Part shown: piece by piece, positions 34,577-40,811 of the stretch
How positions within the stretch are numbered: the stretch's first letter is position 1
How the letters are laid out: the number at the start of each line of letters is the position of its first letter
From: Thermodesulfobacteriota bacterium
GTDB lineage: Bacteria > Desulfobacterota_D > UBA1144 > Nemesobacterales > UBA2774
DNA length: 64,000 nt
Reading direction: 5' to 3'
Assembly (NCBI GenBank): GCA_965216785.1
Contig: OZ244197.1
Location: 374,828 to 438,827, forward strand
Position numbers and translations under genes: made by a program
The notes under the pieces: generated by a model
What the model was told of the DNA's origin: nothing
Databases searched by the model: none
What the model saw: only the letters and a program-made list of their open reading frames with translations

Positions 34577-35584
34577 TTATCCGCCTCCGAGCGCCGCAAT
34601 CCTTTGCTTGGCGGTGTCCCCATATCCTTTATATCTATCCTGTCCGAGTGAGATCTCGAGAAACTTTTTGTAGTTAGCAATTGCTTCAGATCTCTTGTTT
34701 TGCTTCTCGTAACCCTGTGCTAAGAAGAAGTAGGCCTCAGGGGTATTGGGATTTAGTGAAATCGCCTTTTGTTCACTCGAGACAGTATTGGCGAATTGTT
34801 TCATATAGAAGTAAGTAATACCAAGATTCATGTACGCCGGGGCATAGTTAGGGTTAAGCTCAATTGCCTTTTGGAACTGATTTACGGCTTTTTGATAATA
34901 GCCCTGGTAGTTGAGCGCCGTTCCAAGATAGTTGTGAAGCTGGGCGGATGGAGCTATCTCTACAGCCTTTTTATACTGTGCCGCGGCCTGATTGAAAGAG
35001 CGTCTTTTCTGATAGTAGGCATTACCAAGACCTATGTACGCGGGAACGTATTTGGGATTGAGCTCGATTGCCTTTCTGATCTCCGGAGCGTTAGGGTTTC
35101 CGCCGCTTGCGGCCCAGAGTATGTAATAGGCTTCAGCGTTATTGGGGTCCTTAGCTAGAATGCCTCTCGCTGCCGCGATAGCCTCTTTCTCACGGCTCAA
35201 ATGGTAATAGCTATAAGCAAGAGCAACCTGAGTCGCCTCTAGATCGGGACCGAGTTTAAGGGCCTTTTCCATATTTTTATATGAATCGTTATAGTATTTC
35301 TCATAATCGTCTTTTATCAGGTATCTGTAAAAACCCATGAAGGAATAAACTTCGGCAAGCCCGGCGTATGCCGGAGCATAATTCGCGTCTATAGCGATAG
35401 CTTTATTATATGTCGCTATTGCTTGCTCAAACCCCTCAGGCGTAAACTTCATAAATTCGGCTTTTCCCTGCTTATACAACCCGGCTGCACCGGCTGCATC
35501 TTGGGCAATTGCAGTGTTAGCGTCTAACCCCGCAACTGTAAAAGTTATAGAAAGTAAAACCAAGCTTAAAATCAAACGCTTCAT
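34577..35584 (-). CDS. secreted tetratricopeptide-repeat protein
   Basis: Start moved to ATG 35584 (MKRLILSLVLLSITFTVAG, AGGAGGG upstream); repeated TPR-like units (AIELNPNYAPAY..., ...LGNAYY...). Confidence 0.75.
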   Translation of the reverse strand: MKRLILSLVLLSITFTVAGLDANTAIAQDAAGAAGLYKQGKAEFMKFTPEGFEQAIATYNKAIAIDANYAPAYAGLAEVYSFMGFYRYLIKDDYEKYYNDSYKNMEKALKLGPDLEATQVALAYSYYHLSREKEAIAAARGILAKDPNNAEAYYILWAASGGNPNAPEIRKAIELNPKYVPAYIGLGNAYYQKRRSFNQAAAQYKKAVEIAPSAQLHNYLGTALNYQGYYQKAVNQFQKAIELNPNYAPAYMNLGITYFYMKQFANTVSSEQKAISLNPNTPEAYFFLAQGYEKQNKRSEAIANYKKFLEISLGQDRYKGYGDTAKQRIAALGGG

Positions 35585-35631
35585 AACTCCCTCCTTGTAA
35601 AGTATTGTGCCTATAATGATTGTATCCGGTA

Positions 35632-36162
35632 TCAATACCCTTCGAGTATATATTTAACTATCTCTTTAGCCAAACCTTCATAAATATCCTTTGCCAAAAA
35701 GCCCATAGAGCTAAACCCGTTTACTTCTCCAGAGGATATTTCATCGCCGGTAGCCTTATTAACCAAGGCTAACTGGACTGTTACCGAAACCTCTCCGAAT
35801 TTTACTCCGCCGCCTTCATAAGAAATATCTGTGCTCGGTCTGTATTCACTTACCTCGCCTAAAACTACTATAGTATCCTCTGCAGGAATATTTTCAATTG
35901 CCCCAAACTCCACTTCTTTGAATTTATCCTTCGTAGCAAGCAGCGCTGCCGACTCTGCCGGGATTTTCGATAGCGCCTGTTCTGGAAAATCGACTATTTC
36001 AGTTACAAACTTATCGAACTGTACGGCCTGGAAACTGCTGAGCTTTTCTTTAGAAGGCTTAAAGTAAGATGTTGTTTTAATGCTCGCGCAGCCACTAAAC
36101 ATCAGAGCCAAAAAGAACAGCGAACATGCGGCATAGTATGAGCGGTAATTTCTATCTTTCAT
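35632..36162 (-). CDS. hypothetical lipoprotein
   Basis: Start moved to ATG 36162 (MKDRNYRSYYAACSLFFLALMFSGCAS, AAGGAGGA RBS upstream); lipobox Cys. Confidence 0.55.
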   Translation of the reverse strand: MKDRNYRSYYAACSLFFLALMFSGCASIKTTSYFKPSKEKLSSFQAVQFDKFVTEIVDFPEQALSKIPAESAALLATKDKFKEVEFGAIENIPAEDTIVVLGEVSEYRPSTDISYEGGGVKFGEVSVTVQLALVNKATGDEISSGEVNGFSSMGFLAKDIYEGLAKEIVKYILEGY

Positions 36163-36276
36163 AATTTCGTGCTCCTCCTTATAAGACAAGTAGTATAAAA
36201 TAGCATACTTCTTCTACTTGATAAACATCAAATCTTAATATTCTGTTATCACAAATGCGCTACGTGAAAAATTTAC

Positions 36277-36322
36277 TGTACAAAATTTGTCACTATTGTA
36301 CAACTTTTGCGAAAATTGTCAC
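36277..36322 (+). promoter_or_regulatory. direct repeats TGTACAA...TTGTCAC x2, candidate enhancer-binding-protein sites
   Basis: TGTACAAAATTTGTCAC (36277-36293) and TGTACAACTTTTGCGAAAATTGTCAC (36297-36322), 120-170 bp upstream of the sigma-54 promoter. Confidence 0.35.
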
Positions 36323-36444
36323 ATCAAACGTGCCTTTAAGGCTTTTTCAAAGCCACTGTATTTTGCTGAAATTTAGTTCAAATTTTAATATTATCATATT
36401 ATATCAGGGGGTTATAAGCAGGAGGCTCTGAAATACACCGAATT

Positions 36445-36460
36445 TGGCACGTGGCTTGCA
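36445..36460 (+). promoter_or_regulatory. sigma-54 (RpoN) promoter, -24/-12 elements TGGCACG-N4-TTGCA
   Basis: Sequence TGGCACGTGGCTTGCA matches the sigma-54 consensus exactly in the GG-N10-GC core; about 43 bp upstream of pilin ATG 36503. Confidence 0.6.
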
Positions 36461-36502: not shown

Positions 36503-37102
36503 ATGTTAAGGAATATACTGAGAAAGAAAAAAGGCGAGAAAGGGTTTACCCTTATCGAGCTTTTGGTTGTTGCAGCGATCATCGGCATCCTGCTCGCAAT
36601 CGCTATCCCTAACCTTATAAAGGCAAGAATATCCGCAAACGAGGCAAACGCAAGAAAGGCCTTGCAGACCCTTAGAGACGCGGAAGGGGAGTATTTCGAG
36701 CAAGATCTTAACGATGATGGTGAGAGAAACTACACCGGATTTATTGGGGATCTCAGCACTGCTGAATCACTCCGTAATCCGGAAGGAACAAGTGATGAAG
36801 AGGACGCACTCATAGATTCAAGCTTTGAGGGTGCGGACGATGGAGAAGATCCCGCTGCGGCAGGCTGCGCGGACTCAAAAGCCGGGTACTGCATAGGCTG
36901 GGATGCCGCTACCATCGAGGCAGCTGCAGGTAACCTTGATGATTTCGGATGGGAAGCTTCTATGACAAGTTTCCGTAAGACAGGTAGAAAAGACTTCGCG
37001 GTTTACGGAGACGGCGTTATAAGGTGCACAGTTACCGGAGCCACCAACTCAGGCGATCCTGGTGACTTTAATGCCGATCGTACAACCGGCGCTTGCGACT
37101 AA
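36503..37102 (+). CDS. type IV pilin (PilA-like prepilin)
   Basis: 199 aa; basic leader ending KG then FTLIELLVVAAIIGILLAIAIPNL (prepilin peptidase site, Glu at +5); C-terminal Cys residues; GGAGG RBS 8 nt upstream. Confidence 0.85.
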   Translation: MLRNILRKKKGEKGFTLIELLVVAAIIGILLAIAIPNLIKARISANEANARKALQTLRDAEGEYFEQDLNDDGERNYTGFIGDLSTAESLRNPEGTSDEEDALIDSSFEGADDGEDPAAAGCADSKAGYCIGWDAATIEAAAGNLDDFGWEASMTSFRKTGRKDFAVYGDGVIRCTVTGATNSGDPGDFNADRTTGACD

Positions 37103-37156
37103 TAATTTTAAGAAAAAGTTAGTTCAATGTAAAGAGTACAAAATGTTTACTATAAA

Positions 37157-37181
37157 ACAGCGGGGTTAGCCCCGCTGTTTT
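37157..37181 (+). terminator. intrinsic (Rho-independent) terminator after pilin 1
   Basis: Perfect hairpin ACAGCGGGG-TTAG-CCCCGCTGT followed by TTT and preceded by AAAA, 55 nt after the pilin 1 stop. Confidence 0.7.
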
Positions 37182-37302
37182 ATCATCGCCCAATTGGTAC
37201 ACAAAGTAGAAATTACTACTTTGATCACTTGCTTTATCAAATAGAATTTCCTGTACGCATACTGCACAATTAAATTGTAATTACGAGTAGGAGCATACTA
37301 AA

Positions 37303-37899
37303 ATGATACAACCGGGCAAAATAAAATTTCAAAACGGATTTACACTGATAGAGTTGCTCGTTGTTGCGGCTATTATAGGCATTCTACTTGCCATTGCTAT
37401 TCCAAATCTCTTAAAAGCCCGAATTTCCTCAAACGAAGTGAATGCGCGAAAAGCGCTGCAAACCTTAAAAGATGCAGAGTATGAGTATTTTGAGCAGGAT
37501 CTGAATGATGACGGTGAGAGAAATTTTACAAATTTCATAGGGACTCTCGGTACACCAGGAACACTCCGCGACCCCTCAGGAACTAATGACGAAGAAGACT
37601 CGCTGATTGACAATACCTTTGAGAAGGCGGTAATAAACGACGGTAGTCCTGCAAGTTCCGCAAACTGCGTAGACTCAAAGGCCGGTTACTGCATCGCATG
37701 GAGCAGCGACGTTGAAACCGACGATTTGACCCTAGTAGCAGACTTCGGATGGGAAGCCTCCATGACGAATGCAAGGGTTAACGGGAGAAAAGACTTTTCC
37801 GCTTTCGCAGATAAAGTTATAAAATGCACCGTAACAACCCAGAGCAAGGGGCAGGCCGGGACGTTTGAATCCGGGCGTAGTGACTCCGCTTGTGAGTGA
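37303..37899 (+). CDS. type IV pilin (PilA-like prepilin), paralog 2
   Basis: 198 aa; leader MIQPGKIKFQNG then FTLIELLVVAAIIGILLAIAIPNL; shares CxDSKAGYCI and DFGWEASMT motifs with pilin 1. Confidence 0.85.
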   Translation: MIQPGKIKFQNGFTLIELLVVAAIIGILLAIAIPNLLKARISSNEVNARKALQTLKDAEYEYFEQDLNDDGERNFTNFIGTLGTPGTLRDPSGTNDEEDSLIDNTFEKAVINDGSPASSANCVDSKAGYCIAWSSDVETDDLTLVADFGWEASMTNARVNGRKDFSAFADKVIKCTVTTQSKGQAGTFESGRSDSACE

Positions 37900-38005
37900 T
37901 AAGCTTATATTCCTCAAATTAGAATTATCAAGCCCACAATCAACCTAATTATCCGAGAGATATTGCCTCTAAACACCGATTAACATATATTTTAGATATC
38001 CGGTT

Positions 38006-38935
38006 ATGTCAGAAACTATTCTCCAAGTAAATGAGCTGGTTAAAAACTTTAAGACAGGGTTCTTTGGAAAAGAAGCCAAGGTTCTAAAAGGGGTTTCATT
38101 CTCTGTCGAAAGCGGGGAGATATATGGCTTTGTCGGGCCGAACGGCGCCGGAAAAACCACTACCTTTAAATGCATCCTGGGGTTTGCGCAGAAATCTGGC
38201 GGTAACATCAGCCTGATGGGCGAAAGTAACGGTAACGTCGACATAAAAGCCCGGATTGGGTACTTGCCCGAGAACCCCTACTTTTACGACTACTTAACGG
38301 GCGAAGAGCTGCTCCACTACATGGGAGAGCTGCACGGTATAAAACAAAAGACGCTTAAGGATAGAGTGGATTTTCTATTATCGAAAGTCAATATGAGCCA
38401 CGCCCGAAGTCTACAGCTCAGAAAGTACTCCAAGGGGATGCTCCAGAGGATTGGAGTCGCTCAGGCGCTCATAAACGACCCGGAATTTATCATCCTGGAC
38501 GAGCCTATGAGCGGACTTGACCCTATAGGTAGAAGAGAGATTAAAGACTTGATACTGGAGAAGAAAGCGAAAGGGAAAACGATACTTCTCAGCTCGCATA
38601 TGCTAGCTGACGTAGAAGCGCTCTGTGACAGAGTAGCGCTGATAATGAACGGCAGGGTTGTTAGGACAGGCACCATCGGTGAGCTACTAAACGAGATACA
38701 CACAGATTACGAGCTCTTTCTCGAAGGATCGAGAGACGATGTCAGAGAGCACGTAAAAGACCTGAATGTTGAGCTAGAGGAAAGAGCCGGCTTCTTGGTG
38801 CTCAAGTTTGATGAGGATATAAAGACTAGGGTTTTTGAAGCTGTAATGAAATCCTCCTCAGAGATTGTCTCACTTCATCCAATGAGAAAATCGCTGGAAG
38901 GACTATTTGTAGAAGAGGCTAACAAAAATGAATAG
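38006..38935 (+). CDS. ABC transporter ATP-binding protein (ABC-2 type)
   Basis: 309 aa; Walker A GPNGAGKTT, signature YSKGMLQRIG, Walker B IILDEP. Confidence 0.9.
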   Translation: MSETILQVNELVKNFKTGFFGKEAKVLKGVSFSVESGEIYGFVGPNGAGKTTTFKCILGFAQKSGGNISLMGESNGNVDIKARIGYLPENPYFYDYLTGEELLHYMGELHGIKQKTLKDRVDFLLSKVNMSHARSLQLRKYSKGMLQRIGVAQALINDPEFIILDEPMSGLDPIGRREIKDLILEKKAKGKTILLSSHMLADVEALCDRVALIMNGRVVRTGTIGELLNEIHTDYELFLEGSRDDVREHVKDLNVELEERAGFLVLKFDEDIKTRVFEAVMKSSSEIVSLHPMRKSLEGLFVEEANKNE

Positions 38936-39731
38936 AGTATTTAGCGTAGCGCGCAACACATTCATTGAAGCCATAAGAGATAGAGTCCTCTACAGCCTGG
39001 TCGTTTTTGCTATACTGATGATTCTAAGCTCACTTATCATAGCCGCCATTTCCGGAGAGCAGTACAATAAAATTGTAAAAGACTTGGGACTCACAGCTAT
39101 TTCAATAATAGGCATCATGCTGTCCGTATTTCTGGGCATGGGTCTTGTTTATAAAGAGATAGAGAAAAAAACAGTCTATAACATCTTCTCAAAACCGATT
39201 AAGCGATACGAATTTATTCTCGGCAAGTATTTAGGCCTGGCTTTTACACTACTTCTAATTACTATTGGGATGGCAATTATACTTTTCCTCTTGGTTCTAT
39301 ATACGGAGCTCAGATATCAGGGGCTTATAGAGTTTTATTACGGGGGTCAGCATTTCAGCGAATTTTTTAACGCCATATATTTTCAGTATCTGGAATTCTT
39401 AATTATTATCGGCATCGCTCTTATATTCTCTAGTTTCACAAGCCCTATACTGAGCGTTTTATTCACATTTTTACTATTCGCGATAGGACGCTTTTCAGGC
39501 GATATAAGACTATTTGCAGAGGAGATAAAAAACCCGGTGAGCGCCGTTTTCGCCGAGGTGATTTATACGGTTATACCCAATCTTGAGAAGTTTAACGCAA
39601 GGAGTGAAGCCGTATACGGCGGCAGTTTAAACTGGGAGCTAATAATTTATACGACCGTCTATGCAATCATTTATACGATTGCGCTCCTATTGCTTTCCAT
39701 GGTCATTTTTGAAAAAAAGGAATTTAAGTAA
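38928..39731 (+). CDS. ABC-2 family transporter permease
   Basis: 267 aa polytopic membrane protein; start overlaps the ATPase stop by 8 bp. Confidence 0.8.
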   Translation: MNRVFSVARNTFIEAIRDRVLYSLVVFAILMILSSLIIAAISGEQYNKIVKDLGLTAISIIGIMLSVFLGMGLVYKEIEKKTVYNIFSKPIKRYEFILGKYLGLAFTLLLITIGMAIILFLLVLYTELRYQGLIEFYYGGQHFSEFFNAIYFQYLEFLIIIGIALIFSSFTSPILSVLFTFLLFAIGRFSGDIRLFAEEIKNPVSAVFAEVIYTVIPNLEKFNARSEAVYGGSLNWELIIYTTVYAIIYTIALLLLSMVIFEKKEFK

Positions 39732-39740
39732 CCAAGCCCC

Positions 39741-40811
39741 ATGTCAATTACAAAAAAACCCATAATCGGCCTAACTGTAATCTTAATATTGATATTAGCG
39801 TCTATACCGTTTCAAAATAAGATAGACGAAGCGCACGGTAAATTTAGCAGTATTGAGGGCAGCATATACCTATCGTCCTCTATGCTCGACAAGATGTCTC
39901 TGGGGTACCAGGAAATTCTAGCCGATGTATATTGGCTTCGGGCGCTTCAGTACTTTGGCGGTAAAGATATTGATGAGCAGGACCCCGAGCTTCTGTATCA
40001 TTATTTTAATATAATTACCGATCTTGACCCGAAATTTGTAAACGCTTACAGGTATGGCGGCGCATTTTTGGCGGAGCCTCCCCCGTATGGACTTGGGAAT
40101 TTTAAATTGGGTGTAAAGGTCTTTGAGAAAGGAAGAGAAAACAACCCCGATAATTTCAGACTGCCCCTTGAACAAGCATTCCTATATTACATATACCCGA
40201 AGAATTACGCTAAAGCCGCTGAGCTTTTCGAAGAGGCCGGAGCTAAACCCGGACTATCGCCATTCAGAAAGGCATCCATTAACGGCATGGCCGCCGCCGC
40301 TCACGCACATGGTGGAGACAGAAAAAATTCCAGGAAAATTTGGGAAACTATCTATGAAACGAGCCCGAGCGAAGGCAGGAGAAATTTCGCACTCAGAAAC
40401 TTAAAAGAGATACAAACAATGGATATTGAGGACAATTTAACACTAGCTTTAAAAGAGTACAAGAAGCGTTTCAAGAAACTCCCGGAAGGGGTGGAGGAAA
40501 TTGTCGATACCGGGATTATTGAATCGGTACCCGCCTCCCCTCTTGATGGACAGTTTATAATCGCGGCCCAAATCGAAGCTGTGAAAGACAGTGCTTTGGC
40601 AGAGAGCAACCTGAATCAAAGTCTTAGGTTCCTGAACGCAAAATCGAGAAGGCATATGAAGACTTTCGGCGAATACCCAAAAGATATAAATGAGCTCAGG
40701 GTGTATATTCAAGACTATACTACCAGCGATTTCCCAGCACACCCGCTTGGCGAGCCATATGACTACGATCCGGAAACAGGAAAAGTAACTTCTGGGGAAA
40801 TTACAAAGTAA
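39741..40811 (+). CDS. membrane-anchored hypothetical protein, helical repeat-like (possible ABC transporter accessory)
   Basis: 356 aa; N-terminal TM anchor (IIGLTVILILILASI); starts 9 bp after the permease. Confidence 0.55.
   Translation: MSITKKPIIGLTVILILILASIPFQNKIDEAHGKFSSIEGSIYLSSSMLDKMSLGYQEILADVYWLRALQYFGGKDIDEQDPELLYHYFNIITDLDPKFVNAYRYGGAFLAEPPPYGLGNFKLGVKVFEKGRENNPDNFRLPLEQAFLYYIYPKNYAKAAELFEEAGAKPGLSPFRKASINGMAAAAHAHGGDRKNSRKIWETIYETSPSEGRRNFALRNLKEIQTMDIEDNLTLALKEYKKRFKKLPEGVEEIVDTGIIESVPASPLDGQFIIAAQIEAVKDSALAESNLNQSLRFLNAKSRRHMKTFGEYPKDINELRVYIQDYTTSDFPAHPLGEPYDYDPETGKVTSGEITK

Follow-up and report, generated by a model that had tools for sequence, protein, structure and literature searches.

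The classic pilA gene of Pseudomonas aeruginosa, Myxococcus xanthus and Geobacter is monocistronic, with a sigma-54 promoter and its own terminator, and transcription of M. xanthus pilA is sigma-54-dependent. Alleles of the major pilin are exchanged between strains, as in the pilin allele groups of P. aeruginosa and the pilin variation of Neisseria. The pilGHI genes next to M. xanthus pilA are ATP-binding cassette (ABC)-transporter-like (PMC6060248). Streptococcus sanguinis builds a heteropolymeric pilus from the tandem major pilins PilE1 and PilE2 (PMC6497953, PMC10628169), and Thermus thermophilus makes two distinct pili from two pilins, PilA4 and PilA5, with one machinery (PMC7203116). Two tandem pilA genes lie in one cluster in Stigmatella aurantiaca, and the same source gives the second copy of the Pseudomonas stutzeri pair pilAI/pilAII as 55% identical to the first and antagonistic in role (PMC6060248). 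Here we describe a tandem pair of type IV prepilin genes, copy 1 and copy 2, in a 64,000-nucleotide (nt) stretch of DNA (the window) from an assembly labelled Thermodesulfobacteriota bacterium (GCA_965216785.1, contig OZ244197.1, positions 374,828 to 438,827 of the forward strand). We consider it probable that the two genes represent an ancient pair of pilin types, C1 and C2, in a conserved neighbourhood, with copy 1 regulated and recombining and copy 2 conserved and vertically inherited.

Two tandem prepilin genes

The genes lie in the same orientation:

36503..37102, plus strand: copy 1 (C1 type), encoding a prepilin of 199 amino acids (aa) with a 14-residue leader, MLRNILRKKKGEKG, followed by FTLIELL
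37303..37899, plus strand: copy 2 (C2 type), encoding a 198-aa prepilin with a 12-residue leader, MIQPGKIKFQNG, followed by FTLIELL

Judged by their sequences and predicted folds, both open reading frames (ORFs) are genuine prepilins. The leaders are short, basic and Gly-ended, with leader/mature junctions of MLRNILRKKKGEKG/FTLIELLVVAAIIGILLAIAIPN in copy 1 and MIQPGKIKFQNG/FTLIELLVVAAIIGILLAIAIPN in copy 2; both copies carry the prepilin motif G/FTLIELL with the Glu at mature position 5 and the hydrophobic stretch of ~20 residues that are expected of a prepilin, and FTLIELLVVAAIIGILLAIAIPN occurs in no other ORF of the window. In support of this assignment, the Pfam model N_methyl matches copy 1 at 36.2 bits and copy 2 at 34.1 bits (gathering score, 21.2), and TIGR02532 matches them at 32.5 and 34.5 bits, respectively (cut-off, 16.3). 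AlphaFold models predict a confident pilin fold (mean predicted local distance difference test score, pLDDT, 92.4 for copy 1 and 89.8 for copy 2), in which both copies show the pilin hallmark of a long N-terminal alpha-helix on an antiparallel beta-sheet globular domain. C122, C130, C175 and C198 are invariant or nearly so in alignments of 24 and 140 sequences, and they may form a disulphide-bonded loop. The best Protein Data Bank (PDB) sequence matches of the pilins are Geobacter PilA-N and M. xanthus PilA, and the top Foldseek match, a weak one, is 8tj2 (M. xanthus PilA); a profile of the C-terminal domain found no match in the PDB even at E <= 10.

The two proteins are 62.8% identical overall, rising to 82% within the first 73 aligned codons and dropping to 51% beyond them. 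Together with the N_methyl matches, these values bear out an earlier note on this DNA, which had described two prepilins of about 198 aa with near-identical N termini and diverged C-terminal halves. The elements that it had listed as retained, C-x-D-S-K-A-G-Y-C-I, DFGWEASMT and a terminal Cys, are found in both copies and family-wide. Right after the long helix, both copies also read D-L-N-D-D-G-E-R-N (36704-36730 in copy 1 and 37498-37524 in copy 2), and the family consensus at this point, QDL[DN]x[DN]GxR[DN], suggests a resemblance to a DxDxDG-type calcium-binding loop.

Age of the gene pair

The two products belong to a small, clade-restricted family of type IVa-like pilins of ~195 aa. The hosts are uncultured bacteria that depositors have labelled Thermodesulfobacteriota, Deltaproteobacteria or Candidatus Dadabacteria, the taxon being known only from these labels, and the literature yielded nothing relevant on Dadabacteria pilins. 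Relatives were collected with a family-specific DNA pattern for D-A-E-x-E-Y-F-E-Q-D-L, which retrieved 38 metagenome loci, and exact-protein look-ups were added. A profile scan of genome contigs with the family alignment caught the generic N-terminal motif, returning 80 unrelated pilin loci (L003-L082) and none of this family.

Each copy is up to 84-85% identical to its orthologues, compared with 63% between the two paralogues, and many contigs appear to carry one C1-type and one C2-type gene. Clade-specific profiles run on metagenome contigs showed C1 followed by C2 at 17 or more independent loci. Consistent with two orthologue groups, the downstream copies of the C2 kind form one clade in neighbour-joining trees (core bootstrap, 98/100), and the two types are distinguished by fixed positions (G62 in C1 and Y60 in C2, then S107 and T105, G171 and K171, and R174 and K174). 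The globular domain is more conserved in C2 than in C1. These sequence comparisons indicate that copies 1 and 2 are ancient paralogues, and that the pair is older than the radiation of most of the sampled clade.

At the DNA level, third codon positions differ between the copies at 0.60 of sites. Among 119 degenerate codons for identical residues, 73 differ and 46 are the same, against 43.0 +/- 5.1 expected by chance from the codon usage of the window, and synonymous divergence (dS, method NG86) is saturated, with no value computable; the synonymous sites are fully diverged, as had been claimed. Nonsynonymous divergence (dN) amounts to 0.32 across the whole gene, falling to 0.14 within the first 70 codons, and the combination of saturated dS with low dN points to long-term purifying selection on the protein. 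Taken together with the two orthologue groups, the conserved gene order and the core C2 clade, these data uphold the proposal that the duplication is old and has been under purifying selection.

A recent lineage-specific tandem duplication, in which gene conversion kept the N termini alike, would also produce two same-strand neighbours with near-identical N-terminal protein sequences, and true lineage-specific C1-C1 duplications exist in two relatives, L086 and L100. Such an origin is, however, hardly conceivable for the window pair. Each copy is closer to orthologues in other genomes than to its neighbour, dS is saturated, and in the N-terminal 73 codons 18 of the 59 identical-residue codons are the same, compared with 21.2 by chance, which leaves no conversion tract. 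Because the synonymous sites are randomised, gene conversion is ruled out, and we rejected the explanation as refuted by the tree, the saturated dS and the codon sharing.

Several related loci depart from the C1-then-C2 arrangement. In L086 and L100, which belong to more distant lineages, both tandem genes are of C1 type and are each other's sisters, indicating that tandem duplication of C1 has recurred independently. In L084 (8912-9570), from a long-read assembly, the C1 orthologue is split into overlapping ORF fragments covering profile positions 4-86 and 83-199, either as a frameshift pseudogene or through sequencing error, and the adjoining C2 gene is intact. L083 (contig ctg321914_67x_c, 2.67 Mb) has C1 only at the conserved locus, and a distant C2-like pilin, P0210, which is 58% identical to copy 2, lies elsewhere on the contig.

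Codon usage of the two copies

The earlier note had also read different codon preferences in the two genes, with G/C-ending codons favoured in copy 1 and A/T-ending codons in copy 2. Gene-wide, this difference disappears. The G+C content of third codon positions (GC3) is 0.477 in copy 1 and 0.460 in copy 2, both within the distribution for genes of the window (0.511 +/- 0.046, 52 ORFs), and at identical residues a G/C-ending codon in copy 1 stands opposite an A/T-ending codon in copy 2 at 30 sites, with the reverse at 26 (sign test p = 0.69). GC3 and codon statistics are indistinguishable between the copies, the outcome that had been named beforehand as speaking against the claim. Nor does whole-gene GC3 or codon usage give a signal of foreign origin in either copy.

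A weak trend in the noted direction is seen at the N terminus, where over the first 73 codons the G/C-versus-A/T sites number 22 against 11 (p = 0.08) and GC3 over the first ~70 codons is 0.54 in copy 1 and 0.37 in copy 2 (Fisher p about 0.06). It comes mainly from Ile, with ATC used at 6/9 positions in copy 1 and at 0/9 in copy 2; Leu codons show no direction, and Ala codons lean the opposite way, against the noted preference. In a set of 15 loci with both copies, the window included, mean GC3 over the first 70 codons is 0.11 higher in C1 than in C2 (Wilcoxon p about 0.005), and over the remaining codons it is 0.076 lower in C1 (Wilcoxon p about 0.004), in tests that ignore the relatedness of the loci. 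This regional asymmetry is not a signature of foreign origin.

Probable allele exchange in copy 1 and descent of copy 2

The nearest relatives of the window locus, L127 and L128, were found through a homologue search with the 356-aa protein encoded downstream of the pilin genes (L129, in NCBI assembly GCA_002352485.1, is the same locus as L128). In these two relatives, identity to the window is 77-98% for the flanking proteins, and flank dS is 0.5-1.3. Each has just one pilin gene, whose product shares only 70% identity with copy 1, and copy 2 is missing. Comparison with these and other relatives located one further feature inside copy 1:

36560..36650, plus strand: approximate recombination crossover zone of copy 1, in the conserved alpha-1 coding segment

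DNA identity between the window and L127/L128 is 0.93-1.00 from 36442 to about 36557 and 0.83-0.93 up to about 36647, and then collapses; across the same zone, the identity of the window to L089 and L107 climbs from about 0.6 to 0.87-0.97. Codons 1-40 of C1 show a flank-like dS of 0.41-0.54 between the window and L127/L128; beyond codon 40, dN is 0.28 and dS has reached saturation. The globular part of copy 1 is of the L089/L107/L123 type, to which it is 78-83% identical; the flanks of those loci are only 68-69% identical to those of the window. The same mosaic appears when L089 is compared with L107 and L110 with L118, pairs with a flank dS of 0.2-0.4, in which the dS of C1 is 0.16-0.28 in the 5' part and 1.6-2.3 in the 3' part (omega 0.05-0.08). 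As the excess divergence of the C1 3' part includes synonymous sites, it points to the import or sorting of old alleles and not merely to fast amino-acid change.

Agreement with the flanks separates the two types. Across 45 pairs of C2 loci, C-terminal-domain identity follows flank identity with a Spearman correlation of 0.96, and across 91 C1 pairs the correlation is 0.44; the pairs that involve the window are the largest C1 outliers, and its C2 pairs lie within 1.7 standard deviations (s.d.) of the fit. These alignments indicate that old alleles have displaced the globular domain of copy 1 more than once, through crossovers within the conserved 5' segment.

The copy 2 gene and the spacer preceding it (about 37103-37881) lack a counterpart in L127 and L128. 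Insertion of copy 2 at this site by horizontal transfer from another lineage would explain the gap, and copy 2 is 76-81% identical to sister-clade orthologues, at loci where flank identity is mostly 60-77% (79-82% for GreA). Nevertheless, we regard transfer as unlikely: C2 similarity tracks that of the flanks, with the pairs of the window inside the range given above; the C1-then-C2 order also occurs in lineages that diverged before the clade of the window separated from its sister clade; neither GC3 nor codon usage is deviant; and the homology of L128 to the window picks up again within copy 2, 18 nt before its 3' end, as a deletion would leave it. This resumption is most simply read as a deletion scar, and it is suggestive of copy 2 being ancestral here and probably lost in the sister lineages. 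A C1/C2 deletion chimera was also considered as the source of the single pilin of L127 and L128 and was rejected, the C-terminal part of that pilin being C1-like (70% versus 55%). The earlier suggestion that one copy came from another lineage survives only in altered form. A non-vertical history is supported for the globular part of copy 1 only, by the recombination mosaics and the disagreement with the flanks; copy 2 appears to have descended vertically and carries no compositional signal.

Control regions of the two genes

The regulatory features around the pilin genes are:

36445..36460, plus strand: sigma-54-type -24/-12 promoter, TGGCACgtggcTTGCA, 43 bp before the copy 1 ATG, matching TGGCAC-N5-TTGCA
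36287..36321, unstranded: a pair of TTGTCA(C) half-sites, at 36287-36292 and at 36316-36321, preceding the sigma-54 promoter by about 125-160 bp
37152..37183, plus strand: intrinsic terminator of copy 1, AUAAAACAGCGGGG-UUAG-CCCCGCUGUUUUAU, a 14-bp stem whose 3' arm runs into UUUUAU
37251..37266, plus strand: degenerate remnant of a copy 2 sigma-54 site, cTGTACgcatacTGCA, with GG reduced to a single G, reading cTGTAC-N5-cTGCA
36215..36455, unstranded: hypervariable non-coding stretch that separates the copy 1 promoter from the divergent lipoprotein gene

The site upstream of copy 1 is the one exact match to TGGCAC-N5-TTGCA in the 64-kb window, with the GG and GC of a sigma-54 promoter spaced 10 nt apart. 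The motif is invariant among the window, contig L001 (a second strain), L127 and L128, and nearly all copy 1 orthologues carry it about 51-66 bp ahead of their ATG; it is presumably used by sigma-54. In most related loci, a palindrome, TGACAA-N3-TTGTCA, precedes the copy 1 ATG by about 190-230 bp and copy 2 by about 155-190 bp. One of the most widely shared 7-mers is GTGACAA (20/28 copy 1 upstream regions), and the TTGTCA-type sites form conserved islands inside an otherwise diverged spacer. The arrangement of palindrome and sigma-54 motif is the layout of an enhancer-binding-protein site, and the half-sites of the window are likely to be binding sites of an enhancer-binding activator.

Downstream of copy 1, the terminator region folds at -27.9 kcal/mol (z = -4.7 versus shuffles). 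The strong terminator previously placed at 37157-37181 is recovered here as a 14-bp hairpin; a simple consensus scan had missed it because the T-run sits within the extended stem. A hairpin of -17 to -27 kcal/mol with a T-run lies 3' of every copy 1 orthologue examined, and copy 2 orthologues, with one exception, lack a terminator hairpin. In this layout, copy 1 looks like a monocistronic, activator-controlled major-pilin unit.

In relatives, TGGTA[CT]-N5-TTGC[AT] stands 31-53 bp before most copy 2 ATGs. The remnant at 37251-37266 aligns in register with it and has TG in place of GG. Within the spacer between copies 1 and 2, no GG-N10-GC occurs besides one inside the terminator stem, and no TTGTCA or TGACAA lies upstream of copy 2 of the window. 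With GG lost, copy 2 would be without sigma-54 control of its own in this genome. A consensus scan places a sigma-70-like site at 37275-37304, and the ribosome-binding site is strong in copy 1 and present in copy 2. Copy 2 thus looks like a separately controlled gene; it lacks a terminator, and no strong hairpin lies between it and the ABC gene that follows, so its transcript could run on into the ABC operon. The earlier expectation that the two copies are differently expressed fits a copy 1 with sigma-54 promoter and terminator and a copy 2 with a degraded sigma-54 site and no terminator.

The state of its promoter raises the question of whether copy 2 is being lost here and is a silent or weakly expressed relic. 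The decayed sigma-54 site and the missing TTGTCA/TGACAA repeat would agree with this, as would the deletion of the gene in L127 and L128 and its absence at the locus in L083, L089 and L107. We consider this rather unlikely, because the ORF is intact with every family-invariant residue, the second strain has the same sequence throughout the gene and the spacer before it, copy 2 has a ribosome-binding site, and either read-through from copy 1 or the sigma-70-like site could drive expression.

The region upstream of copy 1 is highly variable. The window and contig L001 are 99.3% identical over 13.7 kb, and 66 of the 106 differences fall within 36215-36455. There, identity to L001 is 0.72, the same as to the more distant L127, and only the TTGTCAC-type sites and the promoter are conserved. 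Our guess is that this regulatory stretch was replaced by recombination. A diversity-generating mechanism was rejected, since the substitutions, inspected by eye in the alignment, are not confined to one base. The same region contains a small plus-strand hairpin, GGCTTT-TTC-AAAGCC (36340-36354), with a T-rich tail and no obvious gene to terminate; L001 retains a hairpin there despite changes around it.

Gene neighbourhood

In every long relative, the order of genes is conserved: BirA, a small gene, a tetratricopeptide repeat (TPR) protein, a lipoprotein, the one or two pilin genes (C1 then C2 where both are present), ABC ATPase, ABC-2 permease, a protein of ~358 aa, GreA and CarB. The other window ORFs that were checked are housekeeping genes, including GyrB, SecD, NuoG/H, Rho and TGT. 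The pilin locus is a core-genome site and not an island. Two features lie downstream of copy 2:

38006..40811, plus strand: downstream operon of ABC ATPase (38006-38935), ABC-2 permease (38928-39731) and a clade-restricted 356-aa protein (39741-40811)
37963..37991, plus strand: sigma-70-like promoter (TTGCCT, 17-nt spacer, TATATT), a consensus match just upstream of the ABC ATPase gene

Pfam models applied to the called genes identify the ATPase (ABC_tran) and the permease (ABC2_membrane_2); among NCBIfam models, the ATPase scores best with GldA, short of the cut-off for that model. For the 356-aa protein, only 333 homologues were found, which source names give as hypothetical or TPR and none of which is named PilG. 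These three genes always follow the pilin gene or genes in relatives. A block from ATATTGCC to GATTAACATATATTTTAGAT (37963-38005) is strongly conserved in L127, L128 and L123 and ends about 10 nt before the ABC ATPase ATG, and the sigma-70-like match within it may function as a promoter. Transcription from it would give a near-leaderless mRNA without a Shine-Dalgarno sequence. In single-copy loci, no sigma-54 promoter was found before the ABC genes.

On the minus strand, two genes divergent from copy 1 (34577-36189) are syntenic with the pilin genes across the clade. One encodes a 352-aa TPR protein with sub-threshold matches to PilW (72 bits versus 154) and Tgl (46 bits versus 225), and the other a 185-aa protein with a lipobox-like FSGC. 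No Rfam families or tRNAs were found in the window.

The invariant linkage to an ABC-2 transporter bears on what kind of filament the two proteins might form. Instead of pilus subunits, both could be pseudopilins that act together with the neighbouring transporter, in a filament system that is type II secretion-like or another of the type IV class; no pilus machinery is encoded nearby in the annotated part of the window, and GspG, ComGC and GspH models give sub-threshold matches to the N-terminal region. The GspG match (TIGR01710) is confined to the N-terminal 49 residues, at 34.5 bits for copy 1 and 33.3 bits for copy 2 against a cut-off of 88.85, and the best PDB sequence matches are pilins, Geobacter PilA-N and M. 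xanthus PilA. A monocistronic sigma-54 unit with its own terminator is moreover the classic layout of pilA. Taken together, the pseudopilin alternative is unlikely. The M. xanthus-type PilA model NF041775 is likewise not reached, with 47.9 and 49.9 bits over residues 11-80 only (cut-off, 400).

Proposed explanation

We propose that copy 1 is a self-contained unit of activator-binding repeat, consensus sigma-54 promoter, strong ribosome-binding site, gene and intrinsic terminator, the layout that would be expected of a regulated, abundantly made major pilin. Between close genomes, homologous recombination would swap the globular part of copy 1 by crossing over in the 5' (alpha-1) segment. Copy 2 would be the conserved partner, normally with its own sigma-54 promoter and the shared upstream repeat, and with a transcript able to enter the ABC operon; in this genome its promoter has lost GG and the repeat, and in the two nearest relatives the gene itself seems to have been deleted. 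Prepilin peptidase would process both products, and a type IV pilus machine with genes elsewhere in the genome would assemble them, copy 1 supplying the bulk and the exchangeable surface, and copy 2 a second subunit that may be co-polymerised or may enter an alternative filament. A more ambitious version is an obligate two-pilin system peculiar to the clade, either a heteropolymer or two alternative filaments made by one machine, under a shared sigma-54 activator, in which copy 1 is surface-exposed and exchangeable and copy 2 is invariant and tied to the ABC-2 transporter; we offer this as a speculative and rather unlikely extension.

Several points weigh against an ancient pair with an exchanging copy 1 and a vertically inherited copy 2. 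The trees are neighbour-joining trees on about 200 columns, support for the C2 clade is only 67 once its most divergent member is included, and the early-branching second copies of L094 and L109 do not fall cleanly within it. The loci come from metagenome contigs, and the pairs in the correlations are phylogenetically non-independent. At a dS of about 2.2-2.4 between the alleles of the window and of L089/L107, the transfer would be old or long-lived allele classes would have been sorted differently, and the direction of exchange is undecidable. The copy 2 relic in L128 is only 18 nt long. The role of copy 1 as a major pilin is read from its promoter and terminator layout and its variability, and the annotated part of the window contains no pilus assembly genes, rpoN or pilR/pilS. 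Even so, an ancient C1/C2 pair with these separate histories remains our preferred and probable explanation.

The analysis assigns a structure and a history to the pilin locus of a poorly known, uncultured bacterial group, and its readable regulatory layout of sigma-54 promoters, shared repeat and terminator, together with the invariant ABC-2 linkage, supplies hypotheses for cultures or metatranscriptomes. It also provides a clean natural example in which a conserved 5' pilin segment anchors the exchange of globular-domain alleles. The tandem pilin arrangement itself is of an ordinary kind, and the current understanding of type IV pili is unchanged.

Comparison with known pilin systems

Among described pilins, M. 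xanthus PilA is, like those of the window, a large type IVa pilin of ~200 aa. Residues 11-80 of the window proteins match typeIV_PilA_Myxo, and PDB chain 8tj2 matches over positions 14-81 as well as being the top Foldseek match; the whole proteins, however, reach 48-50 bits against 400, and their globular domain has no PDB sequence match. The pilA-pilGHI locus is similar in that genes for an ABC ATPase, a membrane permease and one more protein come after the pilin gene, a likeness of composition and linkage alone. The window has the ABC genes in the order ATPase, permease and third protein, unlike M. xanthus, and its locus lies outside any pilB/T/C/S/R cluster and has two pilin genes instead of one.

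The S. sanguinis PilE1/PilE2 pair shares with copies 1 and 2 the arrangement of two full-length, adjacent paralogous pilins with near-identical N termini, and offers a precedent for one mixed filament. S. sanguinis, however, is monoderm; the window paralogues are ancient (63% identity, saturated dS) and have separate promoters with a terminator between them. PilA4 and PilA5 of T. thermophilus differ further, with a sequence identity of only 17-18%, no conserved tandem pairing and no linked ABC operon. P. stutzeri and S. aurantiaca resemble the window in having paralogous pilA genes, but theirs are species-level duplications, whereas the window pair is kept over a wide clade with stable type-specific residues. 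Finally, the allele exchange of P. aeruginosa and Neisseria has the same form as that proposed for copy 1, a conserved 5' segment joined to a variable 3' globular segment, with old alleles swapped in a collinear locus; in contrast to those systems, the window locus has neither silent cassettes nor accessory glycosylation genes, and only copy 1 appears to be exchanged, beside a conserved second pilin.

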